A stretch of 63,934 bases of DNA, filler included, from Licmophora abbreviata (Eukaryota): the NCBI GenBank assembly GCA_900291995.1. It is 13 parts of 13 records of this genome, joined end to end, with 100 filler letters (N's around TTAATTAATTAA, not from the genome) between each part and the next. Parts side by side here need not be neighbours in the genome. Positions count along the whole stretch, not along the records: positions 11,542 to 29,345 come from OLMU01001743.1; 12 more parts are not named here. One strand, 5' to 3'. The notes beneath the pieces were generated by a model, which was given only the letters and a program-made list of their open reading frames with translations, ran no database searches and was not told the origin of the DNA. Below, piece after piece: positions 11,372-50,833 of the stretch. The stretch's first letter is position 1. Each line of letters opens with the position of its first letter. A program made the position numbers and the translations under genes.

Positions 11372-14346
11372 ATGAGTGCTGGAGATGAGGCGATTCCGTT
11401 GGAGGAGGCACTCCAGCTGTCCATGCTGGGATCGCCGCTGANNNNNNNNNNNNNNNNNNNNNNNNNNNNNNNNNNNNNNNNNNNNTTAATTAATTAANNN
11501 NNNNNNNNNNNNNNNNNNNNNNNNNNNNNNNNNNNNNNNNNACGGCTAGTTCAAAGACTGCTGGCGCTGTATCTACGACGCTAGGGAGCTCGACGCTTGC
11601 TGTGCAGTCTTCTCCATCACTTCGCTTGCCTCGGCCGACATCGATTGGTGCATCATGTCATTTACCCCCTAAATCGATGTGGTCGTCGGAGCCGTCATCC
11701 TCATTTGAGTCCCAGCTCCGTGCTGCGATGTCTGGTTTCCAGCAATCGAAGGGGAGACTCGTCGACGCGCGCGCTCAAATGAATGTGGATCCTGAGTATG
11801 AGAAAGATATCGAAAGACTTGTGAATGAACGAGAGCATTTGACCTATTTATGTGCCGCTTCCGATGACACTGTGTCGAAACAGAAGGAGCGATCGCTTTT
11901 CTTGCTCAGTAGAGGAACAGACATCGAACGACAAGTGAAGGAAGCAAAAAGACTACTTGATGAGCAGAAGAAGACTCAGGTTGAGAGGGAAAAGATGCTA
12001 CGCTTGCAACCGCTTGACGCCGAATCCGAGCGTCTTCGAAGAAGCCTGGCAGTAAATGCCATTCTGGCAACAAGATGTTTAGAGAATGCAGAAGCTCGAG
12101 TCGATTTGAGTAGGGCTCTGATAGACAGAGAAGTCGACGAAAGCGACAAGAGATTCATCCTGTTTGAGGCTGTGAAAAGTGACTTTGATCAAGTCCATGT
12201 GTTTGCGACAGACTGCGCTCGAAAGATGAAACAGGTTTCGCACATGTCGGAGGCCACGCCTTCCAGAAAGCCAGTTTCGCCAGTACGCACAAAGCATCGC
12301 TCAGTCCCGAAGTTGGAAAGCGGTAGAAGATTGTCGCCACTCCCTATCGGAGCGAGCGCTCGTCCTCCGTCACGTGTTGCTTGCTCATCGTTTAGAAAGT
12401 GGCAGACACTCGAGCGATCGCTGAGTGACTACGACGTCGAGGCCTCCAGAGTGAAGAAGCTCACGAGACTGTCGCACATTGGGTCTAGCTCAGCAGGCGA
12501 TGCGGTGCGCAGTACGGGCAAACTCTGTCAGAAAAGTGGAGGCTCTCTACTTCTTTCCCGAGACGAAGCAAAGTCAATCATGCCTGTCCCTCCTCGGGCT
12601 AGTCGATTGGATTTCTCTTCGCCCGTTGGGAGTGTCAGATCTGGATGGGACAAGACTTTCCATGTTGACCAAGAAAGCATGCGTGCGGCTTCTCGTCAGT
12701 TTCCACAGACGGTCAAGGAAGTCACTGCATCCTCTGCCGCACGTGAAGCACTCTCATCGTTTGGTACTACTCCCGAATCTATCGAAAAAACACTAGAAAC
12801 AAAGAAGAAGAGCGAGGCTTCGCTGGAGACAATGAAAACCACGAAACCACGCCTCCCGGCTCCGGGGTTCCCTCCAATGTCATCAAAGGCCCCAACCTCA
12901 TTCTCAAAGGGGTCAAAGATAGCGTCATCCAGTATGCATCCAAAGGGTGCACCATCTATCTCTCAGATTGGCAAGCAGGCCCAAAAGCCTAATTCTCTGC
13001 TGGCTGATGGCGACAAAGCGACCGAAAAGTCTGTAGCAGCCGCGTCCTCTGGTGCAGCTTCAATACAAAGCAGTATGGTCTCCTCTTCGTCGTTCAGGGA
13101 CGTGAGGAGTTTGGGCGACTCGCTTTTCTCGGACGCTGCAATCGATTCTCAGTCGAAAAGCACAATCAAGTCAATGTGGACGAGTGGTTCCCCGAGAAAG
13201 CAGGATAACTATCCCTCTTCTGCGACAAGCTCCTCCCTTGACTACAGCAGCACTCTGACGGCATTCTACCAGAAGCACAACCCCTCCAAGATCTCTGAGG
13301 TCGACCGGCATCTGCAAAAGTACAAGGTGATTGTTTTGTGTCGTCATATTTTTTTGTTTCAATACAAGTGAAAACTAATTCTGTACGCCTCGTGCCTACA
13401 CGGTCTCACTTTTCAGGGCCGCGAGCCAGAGATGTTTGCGAAACTTGCACGAAAATACAAAGTCTCGAACCCACTGGAATCTGCAACACAGAAGCCTGTC
13501 CCATCACAACCCTTGGTTGCGAATGCCTCGCCTCTTCAACAGCCGAGCACTCCAGGCCCCTCGCTCGATCTTTCGACGCCCTTTGGGAGATCGACAGGAC
13601 AAGGTCAGTCGCCGTCTACCTTCGGGAGCTTTTCAAAACCGCCTCCATCACCGTCGCCATTTGGAGCTCCTGCGAATAGTGGCGTTACTGGCCAATCGCC
13701 TTTCGATCATCCATCCGCAGCATCAAATCTTCCAGGGGCTGGACAGACAACTGGTTCGTTCGGCCGGTCGCAGCCAGCTCAAGGTCCGTTCGGCAGCACC
13801 CCCACATCAGCGCAGACAGCAAGATTGATCGGTGGACGAAACCCTCGAGATGTCCTTGTTGAGTTCTATTCCAAAAACAATCCCACGAAAGTATCAGAAG
13901 TGGACAAGCTTCTCGGCAAGTATCAGGGCAAGGAAGAACAGTTGTTCTTGAATCTCGCTAAGAAGTACAACTTGAATCCATCCGTTTTCGGAATCAATGA
14001 GCCGCCCCCAGCTGCGTCTGCGCAGCCGACTGCCCAGCCTGGTTTTGGAAGTCCAAGCGTCCTTGGTGGTGGTCCAAGCCCTTTCGCTACGGGCGCTGCT
14101 GGCGGTGCCTTCGGGCAGCCTTCGACGCTTGGCGCAGCAATCGCTTCGCCAGCCCCTAGCGGCTTTGGTGCCTTTGGTGCGTCGTCTGCAGGTGGCGGAC
14201 AAGCTAGTTTCGGTACCCTGGCGCAGTCAGGAGTGGCGTCATCATCTCCGTTTGGGGCATCTACAGGCTTTGCAGCTCCTGCTACTTTTGGGGCACCTGC
14301 CGCCCCAGCTTTTGGCGGATCGCCTTTCGGCGCTCCGCGACGCTAG
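11372..14346 (+). CDS. FG-repeat nucleoporin, Nup214/Nup159-like. Probable start at 11372 before the gap; continues 11542-13326 and 13417-14346
   Basis: Open frame from the gap edge, a coiled-coil region, many FG/PFG/xFG repeats ending ..FGAPRR*, and a phase-0 intron at 13327-13416. Linking the pre-gap ATG to this gene is inference. Confidence 0.7.
11442..11541. other. Artificial 100-nt assembly linker. Identical linkers at 29346-29445, 32134-32233, 33960-34059, 41108-41207, 46602-46701, 48210-48309, 49618-49717, 50834-50933, 54158-54257, 58715-58814 and 62751-62850
   Basis: N-run + TTAATTAATTAA (stops in all six frames) + N-run, always 100 nt regardless of how much coding sequence is missing. 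Confidence 0.97.
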
Positions 14347-14477
14347 CCACACAGATTGAAGTTGGATACTAGTAGCTATCCGCATAGCAATGGTGACACG
14401 GATGCAAGCAAGCGGTACCAGTCGCCAAGGTAAACTTCTAGTACACAAACAACAAATCTTTAATGTGTCAGTCTAGT

Positions 14478-15386
14478 CTATGTTTGAAAGGTCTTTGCAA
14501 AATCGGATGTCGCAATGCCACGATCGTATTGAGAATAGGACGATATCAAGCGCTCCTTGCAGACCATGGTCTCGGCCACGCTTGGACGTGCCGATGTGGC
14601 CTCCCACCACTTTTGCAAGCGTCGAAATTCCTTATCGTCCGGAAATTGCAGTCCCAGATAGTGTCCACCCACCCAAATCATGCGTTGCCAAAAGGGTGCC
14701 AGCGCCACGTCCACCATGCTGAATCGACTCCCCAGAAAGTAAGGTCCGTCGTCGCGCATTGCGTTTGCGAGCGCTCGGCATTCTATAAAGTACTGATCCA
14801 GAGCCTGGTGCTTCTCTTCTTCTGTCTGCGACATGAGAGCTGCGTAGTAAGCTTTTTGTATACGATCTGTACAATGGGCAGACCAAATCTGCACCATGGC
14901 TCGTGCATGCGGTTCGTCCGGCACCAACGAGCCTGTCCCAAAGACAGAGTCCACATACTCCACTACGGGCAGGGACTCCCATACCACCGCATGCCCATCA
15001 AAGCGAACGGCCGGAACCAGCCCACGCGGAGACGCTGCTACGAATCCAGGATACAACCTTGATTTCTCCTCGAGCGACAAAGCCTGCTTGGTGTAGCCGC
15101 CGGGTTCCTCCGGATCCACCGAGTATGGGTTGATTTCTTGGTAGAGATAGTTCGTACCCGTTTCTTCCAATGCGATCCAGGCTCGCTGTGCAAAGGGACA
15201 AAACCATGAAGAGTATAAGGTAACCAGAACGGGACTTGGAGCTGCCATGCGGCGCTGTATGGTGGCCTCGCCTGCGGCAGGTACCCACGAAGGGTCCCAA
15301 AGAGCGTCTCCTGGAAAGTAGGCGGCCATATCATTAGATGATGGCGTTTCGTCTGATGACGCGGATGGAGGGGAGCTCATCGCCAT
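14478..15386 (-). CDS. Glutathione S-transferase, omega/lambda-like (catalytic Cys)
   Basis: LYSSWFCPFAQRAWIAL, GLVPA, WESLPVVEYVD and GPYFLG..FSMVDVALAPF. Confidence 0.9.
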   Translation of the reverse strand: MAMSSPPSASSDETPSSNDMAAYFPGDALWDPSWVPAAGEATIQRRMAAPSPVLVTLYSSWFCPFAQRAWIALEETGTNYLYQEINPYSVDPEEPGGYTKQALSLEEKSRLYPGFVAASPRGLVPAVRFDGHAVVWESLPVVEYVDSVFGTGSLVPDEPHARAMVQIWSAHCTDRIQKAYYAALMSQTEEEKHQALDQYFIECRALANAMRDDGPYFLGSRFSMVDVALAPFWQRMIWVGGHYLGLQFPDDKEFRRLQKWWEATSARPSVAETMVCKERLISSYSQYDRGIATSDFAKTFQT

Positions 15387-15625
15387 GACACTGCTTGGAG
15401 GAGGATGCCAATGCTGGTACTGCAGTGCTAAATGTAGGGCGACAGGTGTTTTAAGACTATATTTAATCTTTTCGCAATCAACTGCAATGTGTGGGTGTGT
15501 GTGGGTGTGTGTGTGTTGAGGCGCGCTCGCCGTTTGCGCGTGTTGAGTGTCTCTCATCGTCCCTCCTCACGTCTGTCGGCGTCACATCATAGTCATGGGC
15601 AGTGTGTGCCCTCTCGTACTCCCTC

Positions 15626-16977
15626 ATGCTCCTTCGACGCCATTTAGGAGGACGTCTCGCTGCCTACTACGCTCAGCCATCAAACCGTGTCGTTGGATCG
15701 CTCCATTTTGAGAATAATAATCTATTAGCCGATGGAATTTCCTTTTCGTCCCTCTGGGGCGAAGCTCATTGGCGGCGTGTCTACGGACGCCTGTACGAAG
15801 AGCAACAAGGTCAATGGCTGACTCCTGTGGAACTCTTTCGACCGTACTACTCGCAGGTGTTGGCGAATTTCGTGTCTTGTCAGAATAGTGATGATGATAC
15901 AGAGTCGTCCCATCCTCGCTATGCGGTCGTGGAACTTGGAGGTGGTCGAGGGACCAATGCGCAGCTATTGCTCTCGTACTTGCAAGAGACGAGGCCGGAT
16001 TGTTACAATCGATTGGAGTCCTATACGATCATTGATTCGTCACCCTCCTTGCTGGAACTGCAACACGAACTGCTCCTGAAGAATGGACCGCACGCGGACA
16101 AGATGCGCTTGGAACGCAAAGATCTCTTGGATGTGGCAGAAGAAAGGTGAGTCAGTCACGATGATGGTGGTGGACGCACGGATGTATTCTGCATCCCTAG
16201 TAAGCTTGGCTGGACTGAACGTTCTGTGCATCGTGTGGGTCTTACAGAGAACCGCTCTTGGAATCGTCGAATATCCCGACTGTGGTGATTGCATTGGAAG
16301 TCTTGGACAATCTGCCTCATGACAAGGTACGAAAGGACCCACGTACCAGACTGCTGCAGCAAGCTGAGCTCGTCGATACCAAGACTTCTGGCGGAGACTT
16401 CAACAATCGGGAGGAAGAGGTCTTTGTACCATTGTCCGATTCGCTCTTGACGAGAATTCTAAAGCGTGTACCTGCCTACTGTGGAAGTATGGGCCGACCG
16501 TTCTGGGTCCCGTCCGTGGCATGCGGTGTAGTAGAGCAGTTGAATAAGGTCCGACCGAACGCTCGGTTGCTTCTTGCTGACTTTGATTATCTGCCACCCC
16601 CTGATTTGATACGACACGACGATTCTTCTGTGGGTTCCTCGTCTCTTAAAAAGGGGACATCGGAAGCGGGCGACGGCGAACCGCTCGTCACGTCCATGGA
16701 CGGCGTCGATCATGAATGCTATCTCAACGCACCGAATGACTATTGCGACATTTTGTTTCCCACGGACTTTGACAAGTTGGCCAAGTTTGTGGAGAAAACT
16801 TGGAAGAAACCGAATGGGACGACCGTGTCGACCAGCAAGCAGTCCGCATTTCTGCAGCAGCAAGGTCCGGCGCAAGTGCGGGCGACGCAAAGTTGGCTGA
16901 CAGGATATACGCCGCTGGTCCATGATTTTGCAAACTGCACTGTCCTAACAGTGACCAAAGGAGGTGAAATAATATGA
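15626..16977 (+). CDS. SAM-dependent methyltransferase, NDUFAF7/MidA family; exons 15626-16146 and 16248-16977
   Basis: WLTPVELF, VVELGGGRGTNA, IALEVLDNLPHD and DILFPTDF. GT..AG intron at 16147-16247. Confidence 0.85.
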
Positions 16978-17044
16978 GCAACGCTAGCTTGATAACTTTA
17001 TTGGGTGAAGTCGTGACGATATGCTTCAGAGGACAGTAGTCATT

Positions 17045-18662
17045 TCACTTCTTCCCGCCCTTCTTCTTAGGCTTCCGTTTCGTTCGTTGAACTTCAAACT
17101 CTTCCTCGCTTTCATCCTCGTCGAGCTCAATGACTTCTACCTCGCTGTCGTCTGAATCTTCATGGACGTCGTCGTCACCGCTATCGCTTTCTTCACTCTG
17201 AGTGTAGTTCACCTTGGCCCGTGATGCCGTACTGCGCCTCGCTCGTTTCACACTGTTCTTAGCCGGCTCGATCACTGGAACCTCATCGCTGTCCGCGTCA
17301 CTATTGTCGAAACCCTTTTCTGTTGCCTTGTCTTCTTCGCTTTCTCCACTCTGCGTGTAATCCACCTTTGTCCGTGATGCCGTACTGGGGCGAGGTCGCT
17401 TCACACTTTTCTTAGCAGGTTCGATGACTGCAACCTCATCGAGAGAATCTTCCCCTTGTTCGCTTGTGTCCTCGTCGTCGTCCGAAGCCTCTTCGCTTTC
17501 TTCACTTTGAGTGTAATCTACCTTGACTCGAGAGGCCGTACTACGTCGTGGTCGCTTCTTCCTTTCGACTTCGACGTCGCTTCCGACAAATGCAATATCA
17601 TCGTCGTCGCCTGCTTTGGAAGTGTTGACAACCTCCTCGACGTCGTCGTCAAGTTCCATCGTGTCATCCTCCACATGATCGTCGATTGTAACGATGGGTT
17701 TCCCTGTGGTCGCAGCAACTCTTTTCGCTTTGGCAACCGATTTTCTGACCTTTGTTGACTTGGAAACTCCACCGTCCAGCGTGCGTTCCGATCCTCCATA
17801 GTGGTGGAACGGAGATTCTTCCATAATACCAAGCAGAGAGTCGTCATCGTCGCTGTCTTGAACTAACTCCATTGTTTCTTTGCTGTTAGTAGCTTCCATT
17901 GTAGGATCGGCAAAGACAATCACAGAGGAAAAGACGTCCTGGAAAAACGGAATGTGCCACACGAGTAAGTGACTTGTAGGATAGTTGGGCAAGAGCCTTT
18001 CGACGAAACTTGACTCGACTCACCTTGCACGCAACCGACTCTTTGCTACTCTTGCAGGTTAACATCATGAACTTCGTCTGCGATTCCACCTTTTTGCCTT
18101 GCATGACGAGACACTTGCCGTTCGGGTAGGGAATCTTCAAAACAGGCGCATCCGACGCAATCTGTTCGATACGTCCCAGCAGGGGAGGTGCACTGCTCGT
18201 CTTGCCAACATTCGTCTTGGTCGATGTCTCGGTATCTTGGGTCATTGATGCTGCTGTTTCTATATCTTGACTCAGTGTCGCTGTGGTTTCTTGACTCTGT
18301 GACAACCCAGTGTCACCTGATTTTGTCGTCTTGGTGCTTGCCGGCTTGAGTGACAGTAGTCCTGGCAGAACAATCAAGAACCGACCCCGGCCTTTGGTTA
18401 GATTCGGACGCGCATTGGCACCCCGCGCAAGCTGAATGTCGCTGCCGCTGCAAGCTTGCATGCATGGTCCAGGAGTCAAGGACGGCATAGTCGGCGCGAC
18501 GGTGGTGGGCTGGGCCTCGTCCTCACTGTCGTCGTCGAATTCAAAAGAATCTTTTTCCACTAGCTCGCTACTACTCTGTGTCAACATAGACAGAGATGCA
18601 TCCTTTGTGGAACAGAGGGGCCACCCCTCGGGAACCGTCAAGGTAGACTCCTTCGATGCCAT
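17045..18662 (-). CDS. RHL1: RHL1-like topoisomerase VI accessory DNA-binding protein; exons 18662-18024 and 17938-17045
   Basis: GSDI..RFLIVLPGLL..LGRIEQIASDAPVLKIPYPNG..KFMML..VACKDVFSSVIVF parallels the plant RHL1 core as I recall it (GTDI..RFLFSFPGLL..IGDLDRLSTKNPVLYLNFPQG..RYLTL..VLCDDYFDNMIVF). Acidic/basic tail. Confidence 0.75.
17185..17560 (-). repeat. Three imperfect ~150-bp coding repeats (KR.R.STASR.KV[DN]YTQS.ESE)
   Basis: Visible at both DNA and protein level, with units near 17185-17290, 17336-17440 and 17490-17560. Confidence 0.85.
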
Positions 18663-18952
18663 GGTCGTCGTGCCGGTGAGAGAGGCCCCGAGATATCGCA
18701 GGGAATTTGGATCTGTTCGATGCCATCGTAAAAACGAGAAATTCTGACATTCCAAACTCCAGATTGAAATTTGAAAAAGTATCTTTCTACGCAAGTTTTG
18801 TACTACGAATACGTCTACAGTCATCGCCTAAATTTGACACACCGATTTTTTTCTGTTGAGACGACGCGACGCATCTCATCACATGCAGTGTTTGATGATT
18901 CTCACATCTTTCCAAGCAATCTCTACGAACCCTCGATACTCTTCTTCTAAGC

Positions 18953-21900
18953 ATGTCACATTATGGCCGTGGCCCTCCCGGCTGGGGTGGCGGCGGCGGC
19001 CATCATCACGGCGGTGGTGGCCGAGGTTATGGCCCTCCGGGTGGATTCCCAGATCCGAAGCGACCGCGATACGATGATCACTATCGTGGAGTTCGCGGCG
19101 GTGGGCGAGGAGGCGGTCGTGGAGGTGGAGGCGGCCGGAGTCGCGGTGGTCCTAGGAGAGAGACTGATCAGCCCATCCAAGTCAAGACGAATGTGTTCGC
19201 GGTGCGCGCGACGAAGCCGGAAGGCCATGAGGGCACCTGGGTCGAGTACCGCGTCGACATTATCCCCGCGAAGCGCTTGAAAGGGGAAGGAATTCCATTT
19301 GTTCCTACCTCTGATATCCCCGTCTTACCGAAAACGGATAAGGATGTGAATCTCGTCGCATTCATGAAGCGCAAGGAAAATCCGGACGATGCAAACGAGC
19401 CAAAGTGCCTTGATTTGGTGAAGGGCTCGACGGGGCGATCGCGTCATATTCTAAAGAAACTTCAAGACGAAGTGTGGCGACAGTCTGAGGGGAAACTATG
19501 CTTTGTGGTAGGTACTAAGTCTTTGTAATTGGATCGGTGCGTGCGTGTGTGTTTGGTGACGACATCGCTTACTTACGTACCCCTTATTGTTGCTTTGCTC
19601 ATTACAAGACGGATGGAGAAAGCATGGCCTACTCGCCAGACGAGTACAAGATCTTCGACGAGCTCGATCCGGTCACAAAGGTTCTCAATACTACAATTGC
19701 CAGTCAGTCTACAAAAGGGGGGGCTGGCACCGGACACGGCATATATGGACCGGCTGATGCGCCGCCCACTAGTGCACCACCAGCTGAGGTTGCACAGAAA
19801 GCGCCGGCTCCCGCAAACACGGAGCAGGCGCCCCCCGCCTCCAGGTCTCGGACTCGAACATTTCAGATTTGTGTCAAAAGGGCATGTGGTGAGCGTGACG
19901 AGCAAGAAAACCAGTAAGTGACTTGAAGAGCGAACTGTCTTGTCAGAAGGAACCGGCGTTCTCATCTTGCTTTTCGCCTTCGAAAATCTAGGGGGAAGAA
20001 TGCCTTCTTCTTCGTAAGGCTCACCCAAACTCGAACGATTGGGTACAAGGTATTGAATGAGAAATTACTCCCCCTCAAGCTCGAGCTTCAGAACGCGATC
20101 GACATTTCAAAATGCTTAAACACGCTACTGAACAGCAAGCTTCTATCGAAGTTGGTTGCCTTCGGAAGGTCGCCGCGGACGTTTCTCTTCCATGAAGACA
20201 TGTACGACAACGAGCGCTATATGGACGTCCTCTCTCGACAGATGGTTCAAAAATTCTTCACAGGAGATAATGTAAGTTCCAAGGCTTTTTGCAGTCGGCC
20301 CCTTGCACTGTGTTCCGGATGGCTCACTCCTCATGGCTTGTTACATCTCACGCGGTCGGAACCCTAGCAAAGGGATCGTCACATCCCAATGCTTGGACTG
20401 CGAGAAATGCTGGAGATGTGTTCGGATAACTTTGCCATTGTGAAGAAGTTCGTCGGAACTACATTCTGTCACAGAGGTAGAGAATGGAATCGTGATCGCA
20501 AGCACGATCAACGAGAGTACCTGCCCATCGTCGTACCTGCAGGTGGCAGAGTAGACATAGCTGGAACTATGGTCCCTGTCAACCAGGGCGCAAAAGGAAA
20601 TCCGACACTTCAGAAAGAAATTGAAGACAAACTTATGAAGATGGGTGAATTACGTGTGAAGTACACTATCGAAAAGTTTCCTGAGGAATGGAGTACTCGT
20701 GAGTTCAAGTGCTTTCATTGAATGTCTCGCCCAGAGTTAAAGCACTGACACGAGACTCTCTATCTTTCTATCTTTTTCAGGCTTTGCAGAAAAGCACGGT
20801 CGACCCATGACATCGGAAGAAATCAAGAAAAGGAGCCGCAAAGTGTTTCGTGTCCGAATAAGCCGAGCTGATCCCAGAGAAGGTAGGAAAGTCTTCTATT
20901 GGGATCCCATGGAGCACCAGTTCGACCACAACGGGGAGAGCACTACAGTACAACAATACTTTCAGGTCAAGTACGGGACCCGATTCAGATTCCCCGCCCT
21001 CCCTTTGGTGTACTGCGAGGATGCGAATGATCGGAAGAAGAGTCTTGGCTACTTTCCGATCGAGTTCCTTTTCCAGGTGTTTTGTCCTGTCAAAGGCGCA
21101 AACACGGAAGAACATGTGCAGGCGGCTCTCGACTTCCATGACCAATTCTCATCAACCAAAAAGATTCAGCACATCCAAGACATGTTCAAGCATTTTGAGA
21201 AAGTCCAAAGTCAATCGGGGATCCCCTTTCAACGCGTACTTAATATGTTCGGTTTTCAAGTTGGCGACGAGCCCGAGCTTGTACCTGCGGTTGTGCTACC
21301 TGAACCTGTTGTAAGGTTTAAAGGCGACGCAACGGGCGAATGGGGAGCTTTCAATTTGAATCGGAAAAAGTTTGAAAGGTTCGTCGGGAGAGATAAATGA
21401 AGTTTTTGGCGTGATGATTCATTATTCGCCTCTATCGTACCAACACTTCTTTTGCATTGTTCGGACAGAGCTGCCGACCTACAATCCTTTGCTGTTCTTG
21501 ATTGCACAAATCAACGCCCGCCGGAGGCACACGACTTCTTGAAGGATCTGTTCAGCGTGTTCCCATCTCATGGCCTTGAGAAACCTGCATTTGACTGGTT
21601 GAATAATCTGAACAGAATTAAAAGCCATATCAACGAACAGCTGAGTCCTGAGAGTGTACGTGTGTGTGCGTGTGTGTCGACCAACCAATTTAGATTGAAA
21701 GGCTCGATCTCTGACAGCTTGTATCCCCCGTTTATTTTCTTTCCCACCGAAGATGGAGCAGAAATTTCGGGAGGTCGTGGCGAAAGCGCGGGACTTCTTT
21801 CTTCGGGACACGAGTCGCTGGTATAGCAACCAAAAAGCTTGGTTTCGGACTTGTGTGCTTGACGAAGCACATGGCATTGTATCTGAGGTTCTTGTTGTCC

Positions 21901-23898
21901 CTCCGAAACCCGGTAGTTCTCACGGCGGCGTCTCTGTCGTCTACCCCGAAGAACTTAAATGGGACACACATGTGTCCACGGCTTCTGGAGAAAGATTCGT
22001 ACGGGTAATGGTACAAGTTGTGCATACTCGTAGGACTACAACAGTGGTTGACCCCTTCGATTTTCGATGGGCAGATGGAGCAACTCAAGCTAGAATTTCT
22101 GGAATCTGGATCAGCGTGACCGATGCTCAGTGTGTATATATGACTCAAGGTGGCGAACTGCTACCGTCTGACACGGATGCAACGCCGACAAATGTGGTTC
22201 AAGAGAGCTTGGTCGAGTGCCCATCGGTTGTCTTTGTGTACCTACCCGAGAAGAAAACACAGCCATACAACGTCGCAAAACAATTGTCAGACTTTTTGCA
22301 CGGGGTCCCGTCACAGTGCGTCGTGCAAAAGAGCTACGGCAGTCAGAAGCGCAAAGAGCAGTAGTAAGTACTAGTTTGTTGAGAGGGCGTCTTGTTTGTT
22401 GTCCCAGTGGCCCTCATCCCTTCCGTTGAATCCATCGTGTTGCAATTTCAGCTGCAGCAACATTGCGCTTAAACTTAACACGAAACTCAGCAGCAGCACC
22501 AATGGTGCATATGCGTGGAATGTGGACTATGGCCGTGGCATCGAAGACAATTGGGTGAACGAAGTGCCGACTCTTGTTCTTGGTTACAGTTTGGCAAAAG
22601 GTGTGTAGAATCGATGGAGTCTTGTTTATGTACAATCACCACTCCGTCTCAGACCCAATTGCATTCCAACGTAACACACGAACAGAGCAAGGGATTGATG
22701 GTCGGACGGTGATTGCTGCATCGGCGTGTCTTGATAATGGAATGCGAATCACGCTCGAAACGCGCATCATGCGGGGGAATTGCGCAGTTATTGACGGTGA
22801 CGTAATGGCACACATCACCGTGGTGAGTGGCTTGTGACTGGATCGATGTTTTTCGCCTTGCTTGTGTCGAGCCTCTCATTCTGAGTTTCGACTTGTGACA
22901 GGCACTTGCCACACAGTACTACGCTCAGACAAAGAGGAAACCGAGCGAATTCTTGTGTACAGAGACGGTTCCTCGGAAGGAAGTTTCGACGGTTTGCAGG
23001 AAGAGTGCCGTGGGATCCGGAAGGCGTTGAAGTATCTTCTCTCAGAAGGACAAGAAGATCCAAAGACATGTCCAAAAAGCTGTGATTCAGGATGTATCTT
23101 TTGTACGCCTCCAATCACTTTCGTCGTCTGCATCAACCACCACAACGCCGTTATTACCCCACAGACGGCATCTGTTGGCGGCCGTGGTCCCCACAACGTC
23201 GAAAGTGGCACATGTGTTGACAACTCGAAGCTAATGGCCTTTCGTGACGGTCTTGGGCCGCAGCGGAGCAAAATGCAGCAAGAGCTACACGATCAGCTTT
23301 CTCAATCGGATAGTGATAAGAATCCTGATGTCGATAGGCAGGACTTCTACCTTATTTCGCAAAAGGGCCTCAAAGGCACTTCCAAGCCCGTCTTCTACAG
23401 GGTACTTCTGAATGAAAACGCTGTCTTCACACCAGGCGGCTCGGCAACTCCTCTGACAAAGCGCAAATTGCAGCTTTGTACGTACTTAATGAGCCATCAA
23501 TATGGCACTGCAACGAAAGCTATTCGAGGAGTTCCTGTCACTCGTTACAGCAAGCGTCTTATGAACAGAGTGCTTGGAGCTCTCCCTTGTGAGTGTAAAT
23601 TTATTAATGTCCAAAAACAATGATGCAGATCAATGTGCTCCTCACGCGTCCCTTGTTGTATCGCCTTACAGACATGACAAATTATTTGGGTCCCATCAGT
23701 GATGATACAGACACGTTGCTCGTCCGCTCGAGGCGCTCGGGCGTGACTGCGAATGATGAGACTGATGAGACTGATGACAGGTCGAATGGTGTGTCATTTG
23801 ACGGGTATGATGAGTCTGTCATTATGCCTGCTGCGAGCTGCTTCCGAGGGGAGAGTGACAGGATCTGTCCTCCATTTCGATTGAACTTTACTGCCTAA
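18953..23898 (+). CDS. AGO: Divergent eukaryotic Argonaute (RGG-N-PAZ-MID-PIWI), 11 exons: 18953-19507, 19609-19913, 19992-20271, 20368-20698, 20781-21378, 21469-21655, 21753-22363, 22452-22600, 22686-22822, 22902-23588, 23672-23898; apparent frameshift near 22941-22943
   Basis: RGG leader; VKTNVF; PAZ TTVQQYFQVKYG..FPALPLV..YFPIEFL; MID Y..K..SQCV..YCSNIALKLNTKL; PIWI ILVYRDGSSEG, GTCVD, DFYLISQ.GLKGTSKP.FY. All ten introns are GT..AG. Confidence 0.92.
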
Positions 23899-24446
23899 CA
23901 CTATCGCACAATGAGGTCTGGGTTTTATGGATGCGTCTCAGCGTGTTAGCACGGTTGGGAGGCATACCTTATTTGGATCTACAGGTACAGTCGGTCTGTT
24001 GAATGGACTTGCATGATTAGGATACTTGTAAAAGTACATATTATATATGATTACCCGTCGCAAGCTCATTGTTGCTTCCAGTAGGTACAAGACCGACTGC
24101 AATACAGTAGCACTATGGCAAGGAGAGCTGGTGGAAGGGACAAGGAAACAACATTCGACATCGTGTAGCGCTGAAGCACAAGAAAGCAAGAGCTCTGAGC
24201 TCTTCCTTAAAGCTCTCGCTCTCACTGAAAAGTCGACACCACGAAATCGGCACGTGCTCACACGTCATGGCGCACCTTCGATCGTTTCGTCTAGTCAAGT
24301 CGGCGGTACATTTTTCGCATTAGCTGTCCACCCTGCTGACACTACTATCCCTGAGACTGCTCCGTTGCTGGCCGGTTCGTCACATGCCTGTTCGACTGTA
24401 CTCGTGGTCTCGAATTCTGTGTGAAATAGACGCTTGAGAGCGTCGT

Positions 24447-26456
24447 ATGCCGCGTCATTGGCTAAGCACAACAACTGGCACGATTCTGCTGTCCTTTGTA
24501 CTTTCTTCTTTCAGCCCCAAATCGATCTTAGGCTTTCGTTTCTTTCAACGTCCAAGTATCAGGGCAATGTCGTTTCGTTCAGCCAAGACTATGGTCAAGC
24601 GTAGCAAGACGACAGGCAACGTGGATGAAGAGCGGCAACCACATTCCAAGATGACAATCAACACCAACTCTCTCCTGTTTCGGTGGGCGACGCATTCAGA
24701 TGCCTCCTTTCACTCTCTGGATGACAGAAGCGCCACAGAGATTCGACATGCTCTCCTCACCTGGTATCGTGCTCATCGACGGAAGCTCCCCTGGCGTGGC
24801 GATAAGCCTCCGTTCGACGGCTCTACTGCAGGAGTCAACCGCGGCGCTTCAGACAACAAGCGAGCGGATAGTCACAAGCAGCCGAGTATCAGGAAGTTCT
24901 TTGGGACGACAACGACAGTGGGAAAGGAAGAAGACAAAGCGATCGAGAACGTTGAATCATCAGGAGAAGCTATACCCGTCACCGCCTATGGAGTGTGGGT
25001 CAGCGAAATTATGCTCCAACAGACTCGTGTCGAAGCGGTGATTCCGTACTATCTGAAATGTAAGTGACACAGATACGTCGAGTGCTCCGCTTCTCAAAGA
25101 AGTGAACTCACGTCTATGTGTTTTGCGGTTGAAGGGATGAAGTCTTTCCCGACTGTGTATGACTTGGCGAACGCGACGGAAGAACAAGTCAATGCTCACT
25201 GGGCAGGCCTGGGATTCTATCGCCGGGCGCGACTGTTGCACAAGGGTGCTAAGCGCGTCGTGGACGATTACAACGGTGTACTGCCCCGTACCGTTGAGGA
25301 ACTTCAGAATCTAGAAGGTATCGGGCGGTACACGGCATCGGCCGTTGCGAGTATTGCCTATGATGTGTGTGTCCCCGTTGTCGATGGAAATGTGTGTCGG
25401 GTCTTGTCGAGGCTTACTGGTATCGCAAATCACATCAAGGCGCCAGTACTGAAGGATGATTTGGGATGGGATCTGGCAGAGCAGATTGTCCAAGCAGGCG
25501 ATGGAAGTGACGCGGGTGAAGTGAACCAAGCCTTGATGGAACTTGGTGCGACGTATTGCGCACCTTCAGGGGCGACTGGCATGGACGATCGGGACCCGTT
25601 GAAACCGTTCTACATGTCGACGCAGCTTGGATTTGCGTTTTCAGAGGAGCCAAAGAAAAGCGGGGACAAGCCGAATGGCGGCCTATCTGTGTCTGACTAC
25701 TTGGAAGAAATCGCAGCGGCCCAAGAAGCGACAGGTTCCAGATGCAAGCTTTGCGGCGATGATGGTGTCGAGGTAGCCCTGAACGAGCTCTTCAATGTCT
25801 TCAATTGGGCAGCCAGCGAAAAGTCGCAGACTGATTTTTGCCCAGGCCAGGCTGGACACAGTGTCTTTCCGCTGTCTCCTCCAAAGGGCGAAAAGCGAGA
25901 AGAGGTGCTGGCAGTCGTTGTCGCATCCTATTCATGTGCGTCGGACCAGACGCAGAAATGGTTGCTCGTCAAACGACCAGCAAAAGGTCTGTTGGCAGGA
26001 CAGTGGGAGTTTCCATCTGTCTGCGTCTGGAACAGTGCGGACCTGCCTCCCCAGACGAACAAGAAGCGAAAAAGCGGGAAGATCGAAGTACCGACCATCA
26101 AAGATGCGATTCGAAGGGAAGCTTTGAACGAGTTCCTCGACGAGCTGCTGACGGGCAGCGATGAGAACAAACTGCACCATCACTTGCGTCAGTCGGGCCG
26201 CTCAAGTGTCCAAGACTTACCACTGGAGCATATTTTCAGTCATGTGCGCCATACAATGTGGCTGGAGTACTGCGAGCTAACGGGGCTAGATGGGTCTATC
26301 AGCGATGCTTCTGAGTGGACCGCTGCAAATGGGAGACAAGTTCGGTGGATGTCAGAAAGCGATATGAAAACGGTGGGGATCACATCCGGAGTCAAGAAGG
26401 TATTGAAGGCAGTGAAAGCTAAAACGAAGAAATCGAGCAAGAAACCAAAACGATGA
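24447..26456 (+). CDS. MUTYH: A/G-specific adenine DNA glycosylase MutY/MUTYH; exons 24447-25059 and 25135-26456
   Basis: RKLPWR, VWVSEIMLQQTRV, WAGLGFYRRA, HhH LEGIGRYTA, VVDGNV, GLLAGQWEFP and HIFSH. Confidence 0.93.
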
Positions 26457-26464
26457 TACGGAGG

Positions 26465-27771
26465 CTATTTTAAAACACCAGCCAAAGGCTTTACACCAAG
26501 CTGCGATCGCATCTCGTCGATCAGCTTGGCATTTAGCAAAGTCTCATTCCATGTGTATTGAGGCGCCTCTGTTTTCCCTGCCGCTATGCAGCGCGCTACA
26601 GCTGCTGCTTCGTAGGAAAATCCAGCGCTATTGGGATAGAAGTAACCACCAGCTTGCACAATCTCGTCTGTGTCTGCCGGCAAAGCATATTCATAAGCAA
26701 AGTCGCCACCTATATTACCTCGGCCTGACGCCTTGATCAGCGCGGTTAACTTCGTCGGACAGTGGCCTGGCGAATTGATCTTCATACGCCCTTTGGTACC
26801 TAAAATGATCGTCTCCTCGGCACTCTCGGCTAAGAAACCGCAGCTGCACGTGGCCGTGCCCGCCCTGCATAGAAAGAGACACGACAATGAGCAAAATGTC
26901 TCCACCAGACGTAGCACGTAGACGATAATGTTTGCTCTTTAACTAACCCTGGAAGTTTTGGTGTATTCTCCTCTTCATTCAGGTCGTCCAGAGCTGGGAT
27001 AACAGTGCTTGTTGGAGCGTAGTTGAGTATCAAGGAAGCTTGCAGGTCCACACCAGTAGCCTCGTCAACCTGTCCGATAGCCATGATCTTCTCAGGCTCT
27101 CTACTCGGATAGAACATTGTCACAGCGGCGAACGGATACGGTGCAACAAGAAAGCTTGCTCCACCTCCCAGCTGATGATTATAGAAGAACGAGTTTGGGT
27201 AGTTCTCCGAGTCGGACGCATTGAAATTGAAATCCGAGTACACCGACACCACCTCCCCAAGAATGCCTTTCTCGTTCTCAGAACCAAATGCCAGTCGGCG
27301 AGCTTGCTCCACCGCAGGAAAAAATCGCGTCCACATTCCCTCCAGCATGAACACGTTGCGTTCTCTTGCCAAATTGACCAAGTATTCAGCATCCTCCAAT
27401 GAACACGCAAATGGCTTCTCTACCAATACATGCTTATCGGCCTTCAAGATTTGTTCCACAATCACACGACGAAATGCATGAACATTCCCCACATAGACAA
27501 TCTGAACATTTTCGTCCTTCACAAGTTCGTCATAGCTCCCATAATGCTTTGGAATCTTGTGCTTTTCGGCAAAGACTTTGGAACTCTCAAAGCTACGTGC
27601 GGCGCACGCGACGACAGACGCCGAGGGCAAATGCTTCAAACTTTGAGTAAAGTCATGCGACACGCGTCCACATCCAAGAATCCCCCAACTCAGCGGAGGA
27701 CACTCGAGGGGATCCTCCATGGATGGGTCGTCCATGGGTGGAGGAGGTTTCGTAGTCGTCGCCGCCATCAT
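26465..27771 (-). CDS. Gfo/Idh/MocA oxidoreductase (DHDH / D-xylose 1-dehydrogenase-like); exons 27771-26948 and 26864-26465
   Basis: WGILGCGRVS, KHVLVEKPF, FMLEGMWTRFFP and LGGGA. GT..AG intron at 26947-26865. Confidence 0.88.
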
Positions 27772-28431
27772 GGTTGTTCTTTGAACAAGGTGCGGGAAAG
27801 GCGCGAGCGAAGTGCGTCATCGAGAAACTATATTATCGGAGCTTGGAGCTCGCAGATGGGATCCTTTTGTTCGGAGACGACGACGGGACGACCATGGGGG
27901 TGCCTGAACGGAACAAGGCCGTTCGTTGATCAAAACGAGAGGCATGGGTAGCAAATGGAGGCCCGTATCATTTTCGGATGACTGTGGGTATGGAGGAGAG
28001 AAGTTGGATAGGAGCGAAAGCATTTTTCATCTTTCAAGCGTGCTGTCGCGACCGGCCGGCATCCATGATTGCATGCCCCACACGCGTCCTCAAACACCAA
28101 AACGATCTGGTCTATTCTCCTCTGTCACAAGATTAACCATCGACCGAAGCACAGCGAGGTAAGTTTTGATGACATTGAATGAATATCTAGCAAAATGCTA
28201 CATGCTTTCGAGCAATGGTCGCTGGTCGGTAGCTCCAGCGTTGATGCAATGACAAACTCATAGATGAAGGTACAAATATGTGGTGCAAGGCGTGTTCGTG
28301 GCATCAGTCAATGCTTACAATACTATTATACTTCTAGAATCTATATCGCACGGAGCGACCTGGAGTCCTTGTATAGATCGTCTCGACCGCATTGCTGGAA
28401 AGAACATCGTTGCATGTAATGCCGCATGTTC

Positions 28432-28760
28432 TTACTTTCCCGAGCTAGTAGTGTTTCCACTGGGGGACGTGTAGGTAGAGGAACCGCTGCCCGAGTTGTA
28501 GTAGGTCGATCCGTTGTCGTTGGCGTAGTAGTACGAGCCGTTCGAGTTGGAGTCTGTGAGAGAAATGCAAGGAGAACAAGAATCAATGAGGACATTCGGA
28601 AAGATTATTTAAGTATATAAGACGAGCAAACACACGGCGGCCGTCACTCACAGTGGTACGACGATCCCGAGCCCGAGTTCGTTCCTCCAGGGGTGTTGTA
28701 GTGGTTTCCCTGGCTGTTGTAGCCAGAGCTAGACGAGTTGTTTCCGGATCCGCGAGGCAT
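28432..28760 (-). CDS. 76-aa Ser/Gly/Asn/Tyr-rich microprotein; exons 28760-28652 and 28553-28432
   Basis: ATG..CAC T|GTGAGT intron ..CTCACAG|AC TCC gives MPRGSGNNSSSSGYNSQGNHYNTPGGTNSGSGSSYHYSNSNGSYYYANDNGSTYYNSGSGSSTYTSPSGNTTSSGK*. Strong C-ending codon bias. Confidence 0.85.
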
Positions 28761-29048
28761 GATGATGATGATGATTGAGCAATGCGACGAGTGTCAACGC
28801 GAACAGAACTTTTTGTGTGAGAATATCTTTTGGAGGGAAGAAATGTAGTACGAAGATTTATGTAGGTTTGTACATACGAGTTCCGCCGTAGAAGTATACC
28901 CCAATTTTTGGCGCCCCAGGAAGTGATTGAAATGCCGTATTTCTGTAGGTTTTCAAAAAGTTGATACGGAATCGAAAAAAAATGACAATCCATCATCCTC
29001 ATCAAGTCTCGATCTGCGCCATCATCGTACCGCGGTATCGCGACGACC

Positions 29049-29345
29049 ATGGCGGCCATGAGGAGACAGCATCACCACACACAGGGATCAGAATCCGTAT
29101 CTCGGAGAAATGCAGATAGTCAAGGTGGCGCTCAGAAGAAAAGGAAATCTTCTCGGAATGTTTTCTCTGGCATTTCCAAGGCTCTCGTTGTTGCCTTGAT
29201 GGTGCTACTTGCATGCTGGGTCTCCTCACAACAGCGACCTCCATTTCTTGATGATTTCATGACACCAGAACGCGGTGTTTCCGTGGATATGCCCCCGCTG
29301 CTAGTTTCGTTTTCTTCCGACGCACTGAACCTTCAAGAATGCTCC
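29049..29345 (+). CDS. N-terminal fragment of a probable type II membrane protein, truncated by the gap
   Basis: Basic segment followed by one hydrophobic helix (ALVVALMVLLACWV); the frame runs into the gap. Confidence 0.5.
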
Positions 29346-37288: not shown

Positions 37289-40200
37289 CTAGTCATTGAC
37301 ATTGTCGCCAACAATAAAACCCCTCAAGTCTGATGCGTCGTCATCGTCCTCGAAATGTCCTTCCCAGTCCTTCATCTCATCCTTGACCTCGAAAAGGTCC
37401 TTCAAGGCAGTAATTCGAGCCTAGAAGAAAGAAATTTGGGGAGGGGCAGCAGTTAGTAGCAGACGATCAAATATAAGAGAATAAAATGCAGGCACCATAT
37501 GAACGAGTTTGACCCACCCGTCGGCGCTCGGCCCGTGTCAGCTTCTGCAAACTACCCTTGCCAAGTGCCTCCTTGGCGGATTGAAGAGAGATCACTCTCT
37601 GCTCCATACTGTTCTCCATGATGAACCGCGTAACCCTGACAGGACGAGACTGCCCGAGTCGATGGACCCGATCCATCGCTTGATTCTCGACAGCAACATT
37701 CCACCAGCAGTCCATCATGAACACTACGTTCCCACGGGTAAGATTGATGCCCGTACCACACGCGTGCAGGCTACACAAAATGAAACGCGGGGAGGTTCTT
37801 TCGTTTTCCGACGAGAAGGCGTCCATCGCGTCAATTCTCTCCGATGCGCTCATGGTTCCATCGATCCTCGTGTAGGTATGAGTATTCTGATCAAGCGCAT
37901 TTTGGATGATGTCAAGAAAAGAGGTCCACTGGCTAAAGATCACTGCCTTCTCGTCCTTAGCCATCTCGTCGATTGCTGCGAGCATTGCCTGGATCTTCGG
38001 AGCGACTTCAGCAATGTCAGAAACATACTTCTGCCGAGCCTTCTTCTTCTTGCGTCTCGCCGTTGCTAGCACAGCTGACCTGGCGATCTTGTCCTCGGGC
38101 TCAAACGGTTTGTTGCAGACCGGACAAAGCTGGTTCCGCACGCCATCGAGACATGTATAGCAAAAGACATGCTGGCATGAACGCAGGACCATTGCGTTCT
38201 GATGCTCCAGCTCGTTGGAACAGACTGCGCATTCGCTCGAAACCGCGTCCTGATCTCGAACGGAGTTAAAGAGCTTCCAAAATAGGATCTCGCCTGTTAT
38301 GGTTCCGGCTTCAAGTTCACGTTGGACTTCCTCAGCTACTTCGCGGTTTGCCTGTCCGATAAGTCCGCCATGACAACACGATTGACGGATGCGAAGCACT
38401 AACGTGAGAAGCTCAAAGAAGTTGTCAAAGACTTTTTGAGTCCCCTTCTTCAGTAGACCAATAAACGCAGCTCGAGCCGTATCGTAGAGAACGTCATGGA
38501 TTGATTTATGGAGACCGTCTTGCCATGGTACAGACTGGATGGTGACCCGTTTCGACACGAGCTGGATTGTTGATTCAACAAGTTCCTGAGACGTGATGAG
38601 ATCGACATTTTAGGAAAACAAGAGGATGAGAGAAGCAAAGCAAGAAGACGGCTCCCGACAGATAAACTTTACCTTGGTTCGTCGGATCGCAATGTGCCCC
38701 ATCATCGTACGAATGCGGGACAGGCCGATCTCTTGCCTGTTGAGTATCGGATTTATAACGCTGTGGGCAAAGACAGGTTTCTCCGAGAGGGGGCGGGCGT
38801 CGAGGAAAGAAAAGAGGGAGTGAAGGTCGGTTGGACGATTTATGAATGGAGTTCCGGTAATGGCGAGTCGTAGTACGCTTGGCACGCTTGTTGTAGCTTT
38901 GAAAAAGCCTGTGCCGGAGTTTCGTATTGTATGGGCTTCGTCGAGACACACACGCCAGAATGGCAAGTCAAAAATCCAATGCTCAGGAAACCTTTTCCGT
39001 CTTCTCTTCTTTTGCAAATCGTGATCGACATCTTCGTCGAGAGCGTGCATTGATTCCTGCTTCCAATCGTATCCACCCTTTTCGTCACGTTTCGCCTCCC
39101 CCTTTGGTTTTTTCAAATAGGTGTTTTCTTCCTCTTGCTCTTCCAGGTACTCCTCGTGCCTCTTGAGATCACTCGCGAGAGTACCGTAGGAGGTTATGAG
39201 GATGTCGAGTTCATTCCACTTAACCAGCGTAAGCACGTGCTCACGCTTGGAGCCATGGTATAGCGCTACGTTTAGAACGCCCGGCTTCACAAACTGCTCG
39301 ATTTGAGTCTTCCAGTTGGCCATAACGCTAACGGGGCACACGATGAGAGTGCAACGCGGGCGACCCTTTGCAGCAGGATTCGACAGAATCAAGCCGATCG
39401 TCTGGAGCGTTTTGCCCAAGCCCTGTGGAAGTGGAAGCCGTTGGTCGGCCAACGGGTGAGTTCATGATGAAATGTGTGATACACGCCATAACAAGGCCGT
39501 AGAACGATATGAGAAAGAGGCACTCACCATATCATCTGCGAGAATGCTACCACGTATAGGATCCGGTCGACTCTTCTGCATCCTGTGTGTAAGCTTGCAT
39601 TTCCACCAGAGATTGCCGTTGTTGAGGCCGAGCTTGGTTTGAAACCAGAACGGGGGCAGGCTATCTTCGTTTCTTTCATGGTGAAGCATCCATCGAATCC
39701 CATCCTTCTGGTAGTCGTAAAGCTTCAAATGATGCTGGAAGCCAGGTGGTCTTACGAAAGGGGGGACATCCGTAAACTTTTCTGTGGACTCCTTCTCAAA
39801 CATGGCGTCCAGTTCCTTCTGTGTCTCTCGCCAGTTTACCAGTTCTTCCTTGACCCCGATCGATTTGGTCATGTCTTCATTAAAATCTGTACCGTCGTGC
39901 ACCTCGGCAGCAGTCATCGACGAGAATGTAGATTTCGTCGCCGCAAAACGCATAGTGTTCGGAAGGCCGGCCACCGAGCTGACGAAGGAGGAAGCTCTGT
40001 TAGAAACGATGCTGCTATTCCTAACATACGCCTGGGAAAACGCCGCGTCGAAAGATGGGAGGGCTGACAACACCGCAGCGGAAAAACAAGGGGCGTTCTT
40101 GGTGGAAGTGAGCTTGGATTCGGGATCCGGAGACGGCGTTACTCGAAGGAATCCGACGGGCTGAGTTTGGGCGTTCGAAGTCGTAGTACACTTCAAGAAG

Positions 40201-40928
40201 ACGGGTTGTCCAAGTTCCTCGTCGCTATCGTAGGCCAAAGGAGGGCACTGGAACACGGGCTTGCCAATTTTCTTCTCGCTGCTAGACTTGACGGTGCGCC
40301 TCTGAAAGACGGGCTCTCCAAGTTCTTCGTCGCTGTCGACTCCTGCATATGCTTCACTCAATGCATCATCGCAGCCAAAGTCTTTCCCCAGGTTCTCGTA
40401 TTGATTCATTTTGATCTCAAGTGCCGAAAGACGCAGTTCCTCGACGCCATCGTTGTCGTAGGTAACTTCGTAGAGATCATCCGAGAACTTGGTCACCGAA
40501 CCAATGACGACTTGGCCATCAAACCGCGTGGCGACTTTATGACCAATGTAGTCCGGAGGAGGCGTTCTAGGCTCAGCAGTTGAGCTTGAGGTGTCTTCGC
40601 TTTTCGATTTTGACATGCGTGCAGTCTCAGATGCGATGTGGACCGCCTCGTTGTCGTGTAAACTTTCGCGCCTGTACAAGTCTAGAGCCTTGTTGAGGTC
40701 TGACCTGTTGAGATCCTCCTTGTCGCCATCATCGTAGGAAACTGCCCAATGGTCAGGACTATGATCCATCTTGTGACTGGGAAAGAATGCAGTGACGGAT
40801 CCAAAGTAGAGCGCTTCATTGAAGACCTTAGCGACACGCTTGCCGACACACTCTTCGCCTCGTCGCCGTGCAGAGACTTTCGAGTGAAGTGCGGGTAGTG
40901 CTGCGGTCTGGAGGTGAAAGCCTTCCAT
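37289..40928 (-). CDS. Rad5/HLTF-like SNF2 ATPase with C3HC4 RING and two N-terminal Tudor-like domains; exons 40928-39528, 39422-38673, 38585-37518, 37420-37289 (start uncertain)
   Basis: ADDMGLGKT, LDEAHTIRN, ITGTP, LRIRQSCCH, RING CAVC..C.HVFC..C..CPVC, FSQWTSFL and QAMDRVHRLGQ. Confidence 0.88.
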
Positions 40929-41241
40929 ATTCAACAAGACACTGACCCAGTAGGTAGGATTCAGTCAGAGGTGTCTTGGAGAGGCGTCGTCAGGCTGTTC
41001 GATCACACTTCCAAGTAGACAGAAGAAGTCAAGCGTCGCCTCTTAATGATGCTTATGATGATGAAAGGAACATGAAAAGTGTGCCGAGCGATTGAGGTTT
41101 TGAAGTGNNNNNNNNNNNNNNNNNNNNNNNNNNNNNNNNNNNNNNNNNNNNTTAATTAATTAANNNNNNNNNNNNNNNNNNNNNNNNNNNNNNNNNNNNN
41201 NNNNNNNGACCTGCAGTTGGTAAACTTGAACGCTTAAAATG

Positions 41242-50171: not shown

Positions 50172-50344
50172 TATTGCGCGATGCGATCCCTGAGCGGCGA
50201 CCGTGATGCTTCTATGGGCGGTTTAAGACCCGCTGCGAAATATAATTGCAGAAAAATGGCAAAAATATTTCATTAACTATTGTTAACCATTTTCGACGGC
50301 GTATCTCTGCACCTCTTATGTAACGAGTGAAGTGGAGTTTAACT

Positions 50345-50833
50345 GTGAGACTAGGTACTACTTTGATCCAAACGTCAGTTTTCGCACTGCTGGCGTCGAC
50401 CGCGATTGCGAATGGCCCTGATGAAGTCCCTGACGACGTGATCGCGGCACAACGTGCTGTGTTGGCAGAAACCACGGCGAATGTCGGCTTTGGGCCGCAA
50501 GCCCCGCGCGACCTGCGCACGCTTGAGGGTGAAAACCTGAGGGTTTTTTCGAAGGCACCTGCTCATACACAGATGAACCTGTGCAACATCCATTTCCATG
50601 AAGGCGCTGAACATGCTGGCGGTGAGTTCACCACATTTCTGGGCAATGGCGATGGCGAAGGCTTTGGCACCGGATTTGGCTATGATGGAGAACTGAGCGA
50701 GGCGGAGCTGCGCCCGATCGATGCGCCGATTGGCAAAGGCGAAAAGGGCCTTCTGTCGCCCGGCGACACGATCGAGGTGCACTATGTCCATACCACCGCG
50801 CAGATCGAGCCGGGCCCGACGCTTGGCGCCTGT
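50345..50833 (+). CDS. Secreted delta-class carbonic anhydrase (TWCA1-like), truncated by the gap
   Basis: GGAG RBS + GTG start, signal peptide, GPQAPRD, MNLCNIHFHEGAEH and GDTIEVHYVHTT..PGPTLGAC. Confidence 0.8.

Follow-up and report, generated by a model that had tools for sequence, protein, structure and literature searches.

Introduction

Diatoms account for much of the photosynthesis in the sea. The catalytic site of their Argonaute (AGO) proteins has been called "only poorly conserved", and the proteins fall into a clade of their own, far from the known groups, yet silencing still works in these algae (De Riso et al. 2009, PMC2724275). Two such proteins, Phaeodactylum tricornutum Pt2_47611 and Thalassiosira pseudonana Tp3_1029, are depicted there with a PAZ-MID-PIWI layout and a poor catalytic site, in a clade apart from the AGO-like, PIWI-like and WAGO groups (PMC2724275). 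Diatom AGOs were also placed outside both the AGO-like and the PIWI-like groups by Bollmann et al. (2018, PMC6284064), and each of the first two diatom genomes was credited with one AGO-like and no Piwi-like protein (PMC3145265). Brown algal AGOs, by contrast, retain the catalytic tetrad DEDH (PMC12867755). Here we analyse an 11-exon AGO gene at positions 18953-23898 (+) of a stretch of DNA of 63,934 nucleotides (nt) from the diatom Licmophora abbreviata (assembly GCA_900291995.1). This whole stretch, which we call the window, consists of 13 contigs joined by 100-nt spacers, and the contig with the AGO gene occupies 11542-29345.

The protein encoded in the window resembles Pt2_47611 and Tp3_1029 by their published description and nests among homologues from Corethron, Thalassiosira and Odontella. 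It shares only about 34% full-length identity with its nearest homologues, and its assembled copy carries a 1-nt frame defect. By sequence, it is an Argonaute with an intact MID pocket and with three of the four tetrad positions non-catalytic.

An intact guide pocket beside a degenerate catalytic tetrad

A first-pass annotation of the window had described the 5'-phosphate pocket of the MID domain as intact, and all of its residues could indeed be located (Table 1), with S-Q-C at 22311-19 in exon 7 and the two lysines of NIALKLNTK in exon 8. The pocket residues match the corresponding motifs of human AGO3 (human AGOs are written hAGO below) and QDE-2 in the alignment, and in exon 7, Y172, K176, S187 and Q188 show no variation across 14/14 sequences, namely the window protein and 13 aligned homologues.

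The tetrad was mapped with HMMER and MAFFT alignments to hAGO sequences and to the homologues. Slicer-competent Argonautes have D-E-D-H/D, whereas the window protein has S-A-D-R(K). The replacements named by the first-pass annotation were borne out: LGYSL, with AGT at 22588, puts a serine opposite the first Asp, and CAVI puts an alanine opposite the glutamate finger. The annotation had also picked the right site, YSK, for the fourth residue, as the numbered hAGO2 alignment gives R/K there. We take this fourth residue to be hAGO2 H807, the residue next after residue 806 of "PAYYA", a numbering that fits the hAGO2 alignment. Its counterpart is R 23555-57 by HMMER and K 23552-54 by MAFFT, both basic and neither of them H nor D. 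The Q of FYLISQKG had been a candidate for position 4 and was ruled out, being the equivalent of hAGO2 H753 in the numbered alignment. A comparison of exon 8 alone with PDB sequences returned chance-level matches only.

Tetrad degeneration across the diatom clade

Judged from the sequences, the degenerate tetrad is a trait of the whole diatom clade and not of the window protein alone. We collected 185 homologues and counted each tetrad column only where it is covered. Position 1, covered by 47 homologues, is most often S (20) or A (10), followed by G (5), D (4), N and H (2 each) and C, E, T and K (1 each). At position 2 (57 homologues) there are 18 D, 15 E, 6 G, 5 S, 5 A, 3 N, 3 H, 1 P and 1 K. 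Position 3 is better kept, with D in 59 of the 87 homologues that cover it (N 9, S 7, E 5, G 3, A 2, Y 1, Q 1), and position 4 is R in 96, K in 27 and another residue in 17 of 140. Neither DEDH nor DEDD occurs in any of the 41 homologues covering all four columns. An H or D at position 4, counted in either register, is found in 8/140 homologues, and of these, P0171 alone combines it with the first and third Asp; this protein is a canonical AGO (DEDH) from the tail of the hit list.

A 27-row MID-PIWI tree, obtained by a quick search with P0171 as the single canonical outgroup, places the window protein inside the diatom clade as sister to P0021, with a support of 97 in the Shimodaira-Hasegawa-like approximate likelihood-ratio test, and sets the canonical DEDH protein apart by a branch of 5.4. 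All homologues that carry a name come from diatoms (Corethron, Attheya, Thalassiosira, Odontella, Proboscia and Trieres). Because the window protein nests in this known clade, the first-pass annotation's proposal of a possible, as yet uncharacterised class of algal AGOs is unsupported (see also PMC2724275); on sequence grounds the protein belongs to the diatom AGO clade as a divergent member and forms no new class. The divergence is considerable, as the nearest homologues reach at most 48% identity over the last PIWI exon and stand at 372/1104 and 399/1182 aligned positions over the full length. An exhaustive library search yielded no more than 265 representatives with E <= 0.001, 109 of them at <= 1e-10 and 23 at <= 1e-30, and no near-identical fragment turned up in a search of near-length proteins, where the best match at high coverage had 46% identity and values up to 65% were confined to 28-37% of the query.

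When a profile of the clade was compared with solved structures, hAGO1-4 scored 207-211 bits and PIWI-clade proteins at most 89 bits. The clade is thus closer to AGO-like than to PIWI proteins, and the hAGOs are among its best solved-structure matches. Human AGO1 and AGO4 act by recruitment and not by cleavage. The window protein shares with hAGO4 an Arg at position 4, the "YYARL" of hAGO4 being aligned to the "YSKRL" of the clade, and in the same alignment hAGO4 has a G in place of the RDG Asp. Unlike the window protein, hAGO4 keeps the first Asp and the glutamate finger, as does hAGO1, and neither human protein has the MID insert described below or an RGG tail of the kind found here. We know of no GW182-family partners, such as those of hAGO1 and hAGO4, in diatoms.

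A putative non-slicing silencer

The first-pass annotation had read the protein as slicer-dead with guide binding kept, a prediction that is well supported by the three non-catalytic tetrad residues and the invariant pocket and that would extend to the clade as a whole. We consider it probable that this diatom-clade Argonaute is a guide-binding, non-slicing silencer that acts by recruitment, perhaps on transposons and heterochromatin. A 5'-phosphorylated small-RNA guide would be loaded in the usual way via the MID pocket, and the usual mode of holding it is expected because the pocket residues are invariant. The guide would then pair with its targets without cutting them, absence of slicing being predicted because the tetrad is S-A-D-R/K, and silencing would be brought about by factors recruited after target binding. 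By extension from Phaeodactylum, the targets may be those of transposon-derived 25-31-nt small RNAs tied to DNA methylation and to H3K9/K27 methylation, or else repression may occur at the level of translation.

Published data on small RNAs and silencing in diatoms fit a non-slicing effector, by analogy across species. Small RNAs of 25-30 nt map to methylated transposable elements in diatoms, with no canonical microRNAs reported (PMC4247016). Dicer (DCR)-dependent small RNAs of 26-31 nt arise from marked transposable elements, and silencing leaves the mRNA of the target gene persisting (PMC11910954). Those from Phaeodactylum transposable elements are required for H3K9me3 and H3K27me3 on these elements (PMC12203969). 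Diatom silencing thus works, yet unlike classical RNA interference, and a clade that has an invariant pocket and no full cutting site fits this behaviour; the census points to silencing of the recruitment type in diatoms. Nuclear slicer-independent Argonautes such as Drosophila Piwi, and the ciliate PIWIs that recruit PRC2-like complexes, may serve as a working analogy only, one based on the 26-31-nt small RNAs, transposon targets and H3K9me3/H3K27me3 deposition of Phaeodactylum (PMC12203969). Unlike these PIWI proteins, the diatom clade lies by sequence far nearer to AGO-like proteins (see the profile scores above).

Several points weigh against a non-slicing silencer. Some homologues keep single tetrad residues, with D at position 1 in 4/47 (one of them P0171) and E at position 2 in 15/57, and an acidic residue from elsewhere in the protein could in principle compensate spatially in the active site. 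The literature consulted contained no slicing or binding assay on any clade member, nor, among reports on diatom small RNAs, an experiment at the AGO level. The link to heterochromatin comes from Dicer and small-RNA data of another diatom and not from AGO data. Finally, consensus splicing of the assembled gene gives a frameshift with a stop at 23028-30, so that this allele may yield no full-length protein (see below).

One rival is that slicing is retained via non-canonical residues, for example with the RDG Asp acting alongside the conserved D of a G.G.D motif a few residues past position 1. The common occurrence of G.G.D after position 1 and the RDG Asp of 59/87 homologues speak for such an arrangement, but RNase H-type catalysis needs the first Asp, and position 1 is free to vary between S, A, G, N, H, C, T and K while position 4 is R/K in 123/140 homologues. 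Moreover, the "PPAGDG" of hAGOs carries a D in the equivalent position that takes no part in catalysis. We therefore regard retained slicing as very improbable and keep to a guide-binding, non-slicing silencer as the preferred interpretation.

A conserved insert within MID

The MID domain of the clade is interrupted by an insert of about 130 residues whose conserved motifs (Table 1) align in 12/12 of the homologues shown. The first-pass annotation had listed lineage-specific insertions as a mark of this protein; the MID insert does not bear this out, since it is common to all 12. In P0011, it extends from ArgoMid profile position 60 to the start of the Piwi profile. The insert has no Pfam match and no Atlas match, and a comparison with PDB sequences gave chance-level rows only. 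Its use as a criterion of the clade is our own and not a published one, and the passages of the diatom AGO literature consulted gave no description of it.

As a candidate for the feature that sets diatom AGOs apart, the insert is concrete and open to testing. One can imagine that the diatom-clade Argonautes are obligate non-slicers and that the MID insert is a lineage-specific platform recruiting chromatin machinery for small-RNA-guided H3K9/K27 methylation. We think this unlikely to hold as a whole; if it did, the clade would be a mechanistically distinct effector class and more than a degenerate AGO.

A one-base frame defect ahead of RDG

The manual splicing of the first-pass annotation stands insofar as RDG is present, but an in-frame RDG requires a weak donor of intron 9, and a frame defect just before RDG had been overlooked. 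With a donor matrix built from the 9 other donors of the gene, which themselves score 2.06-9.91 bits, the consensus donor GTGAGT at 22823 (GTG/GTGAGT) reaches 8.94 bits versus -0.63 bits for GTGGCT at 22827. When the donor at 22823 is joined to the acceptor at 22901, exon 10 opens as ALATQYYAQTKRKP in the conserved frame, which aligns with the clade (TLITQFRIYNKGRLP in P0011, SLAIQYYLHTGKWP in P0019) and with hAGO "LLIQFYKSTRFKP". Further on, a single residue separates the conserved Pro site from the Arg in R(I/L)LxYRDG in 22/22 aligned homologues, and here only 2 nt lie between the two codons. A continuous open reading frame (ORF) from 18953 to 23898 is obtained only with the donor at 22827, and the conserved segment is then replaced by VSTCHTVLRSDKEET. 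On the PIWI part, the hidden Markov model (HMM) of the clade scores 398.0 bits with the frame-0 segment, 380.3 bits with the frame of the first-pass annotation and 373.4 bits with the segment masked. As the frame-0 segment scores best, frame 0 is ancestral and the contig is one base short.

Evidence on the age of the lesion comes from the sequence downstream, the tree and population variants. Downstream of the defect, 218 + 75 codons are open and carry near-invariant clade motifs, and the end branch of the window protein (0.71) equals the median of the tree and thus gives no sign of long-term decay. Metagenome contigs from the sea, short and of low depth, are 99-100% identical to the gene; together with the remoteness of the nearest homologues, this would suit a marine diatom not in culture as the source. 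They come from 4 runs, lie in scattered bins (at most 10/30 per run) and leave 22618-23462 uncovered; those of run X4 pass unspliced through introns 1, 3 and 7 and thus behave like DNA. No RNA data set was listed as carrying the gene. Both exon substitutions among these population variants (2/2; 19638 A>C and 22022 G>A) are synonymous, and one GAA insertion after 21971 is in frame, which indicates that natural strain variation preserves the coding frame. An exact 24-mer scan of the metagenome contigs gave 0 matches, and a protein-guided metagenome scan gave 89 pattern matches with no relative among them. Because of the open downstream codons, the unlengthened branch and the synonymous or in-frame variants, the lesion before RDG is either not real or very young.

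Three readings of the defect can be weighed, and the weights that we give them are a matter of judgement and not of measurement. We put the chances of a consensus or assembly error, in which the missing base is an artefact and the gene is intact, at about even. It is possible, though somewhat unlikely in our view, that the deletion is real and very recent or limited to a strain, so that consensus splicing leads to the stop at 23028-30 and the mRNA becomes a target of decay. The large difference between the consensus and the rescuing donor argues for such a null allele, as does the frame-0 segment, which is clearly homologous (+24.6 bits over the masked version). So does the look of the assembly: contigs of 1-18 kb suggest that it was made from short reads, and short-read assemblies make few indel errors. 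These points have to be set against the otherwise intact gene, the open downstream codons with their near-invariant motifs, the branch length and the environmental variants described above. That the donor at 22827 compensates for a real deletion, yielding a full-length product of 1356 residues with VSTCHTVLRSDKEET in place of about 15 residues ahead of RDG, appears quite doubtful. The ORF would be uninterrupted, and the 4 nt gained at the donor and the 1 nt lost in the exon do total one codon; however, this donor scores below all 9 others of the gene, the segment replaced forms the helix that runs into the RDG strand and fits the clade HMM 17.7 bits worse than frame 0, and it is, by our own estimate, not improbable that chance alone supplies a nearby in-phase GT followed by 15 open codons. 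As it stands, the gene model lacks one base ahead of RDG, and its annotation as intact calls for read support.

Gene model and domains

The exon model of the AGO gene was built by hand, with tblastn matches of homologues as a guide, GT-AG sites from the sequence and the translation as a check; its ten introns measure 75-101 nt (Table 1). The window protein begins with MSHYG and ends in PFR....A like the full-length homologues, and the shared start, MSHYG with its RGG-rich stretch, and the PPFRLNFTA end fix the gene on both sides. The claim of an intact PAZ core stands at the level of the domain (PF02170) and of the Y..Y motif in QQYFQVKYG, in a segment aligned to hAGO1 residues 304-439; nothing finer is supported. 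The PIWI domain is matched on exon 10 by Pfam PF02171 (70 bits) and also by hAGO2. In full-length homologues, weak Pfam matches to ArgoN and ArgoMid accompany PAZ and Piwi.

Table 1. Features of the Argonaute gene and its predicted protein, in window coordinates
Feature	Position	Strand	Details
Argonaute gene	18953..23898	+	ATG at 18953, stop codon 23896-98
Exons 1-4	18953-19507, 19609-19913, 19992-20271, 20368-20698	+	manual model
Exons 5-8	20781-21378, 21469-21655, 21753-22363, 22452-22602	+	manual model
Exons 9-11	22688-22822 (or -22826), 22902-23588, 23672-23898	+	manual model
Gly/Arg-rich (RGG) disordered N-terminus	18953..19165	+	from translation; similar MSHYGGGG...RGG starts in P0011 and P0016
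PAZ domain core, exon 5	20912..21082	+	Pfam PF02170, E 2.6e-07, 31 bits vs cut-off 28.8
Insert of ~130 residues within MID	21825..22217	+	clade-conserved: WFrT..CLViPP..TH..ARlMv..vDPFxF..VECPS
MID 5'-phosphate pocket	22266..22485, across intron 7	+	Y 22266-68, K 22278-80, Q 22314-16, K 22471-73, K 22483-85
Tetrad position 1	22588..22590	+	Ser, AGT in LGYSL; opposite D of hAGO "LGADVTH"
Tetrad position 2 (glutamate finger)	22784..22786	+	Ala, GCA in NCAVID; opposite E of "RQEIIQD"
Intron 9	22823..22901	+	consensus donor GTGAGT 22823; weak alternative GTGGCT 22827
Frame defect CCG-AG-CGA	22941..22948	+	2 nt between Pro CCG 22941-43 and Arg CGA 22946-48 of RILVYRDG
Tetrad position 3	22964..22966	+	Asp of RDG, retained; aligned to hAGO2 D669
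Tetrad position 4	23552..23557	+	K-R in RYSKRL; slicers have His or Asp there (YYAHL)
Last exon, conserved C-terminal tail	23672..23898	+	...PPFRLNFTA + stop; homologues end ..PFRPHLSA, ..PFRNHLAA or alike

Two introns show local peculiarities. Intron 8 (22600-22688) has two splice solutions of equal length, GGT/GTGTAG...AGAG/ giving Gly versus AAG/GTGTGT...ACAG/ giving Glu after LAK; the GGT/GTGTAG donor scores only 2.06 bits, and the tetrad is unaffected by either solution. A GT-rich microrepeat at 21647-21677 (GTGTACGTGT x 2.4), where intron 6 starts, draws many short, imperfect metagenome contigs and gives false "joints" in read placement.

The surrounding window

On its own contig, the AGO gene is followed by a gene for a MutY-like glycosylase (24438-26453, +; HhH-GPD and NUDIX_4) and preceded, in divergent orientation, by long acidic and lysine-rich ORFs without a Pfam match (17048-18827, -). 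The contig carries neither a Dicer nor an RNA-dependent RNA polymerase gene and has no Rfam match, and a search of the window yielded no tRNA genes. A large gene of the chromatin-remodeller type (37470-40964, -), combining a PTM/DIR17-like Tudor domain, an SNF2 ATPase, a RING finger and Helicase_C, lies on another diatom contig and is unlinked to that of the AGO gene.

The 12 spacers are identical (44 N, TTAATTAATTAA, 44 N) and begin at 11442, 29346, 32134, 33960, 41108, 46602, 48210, 49618, 50834, 54158, 58715 and 62751. GlnA, an aldehyde dehydrogenase, an iron-containing alcohol dehydrogenase (Fe-ADH) and a permease run on across spacers in another frame, and neighbouring pieces are therefore collinear. 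The apparent frameshifts in the bacterial genes of the window had been a candidate sign of an error-prone assembly, which was rejected as they coincide with the 100-nt spacers; they are uninformative on indel error.

The contigs in 41208-63934 are mostly bacterial, with a G+C content of 0.56-0.61, which makes the "genome" a bin or scaffold set of mixed diatom and bacterial origin. The bacterial contigs encode RpiR, an N-formylglutamate amidohydrolase, the TRAP transporter DctQMP, glutamine synthetase, aldehyde dehydrogenase and Fe-ADH, and also LacI, a sugar ABC transporter, Dak1 and an ABC transporter of the urea/branched-chain type. Amid them, a 1.1-kb piece carries a delta-carbonic-anhydrase (50324-50878, +; CA_like, E 1e-32), and this piece may be eukaryotic, the enzyme being of the diatom type.

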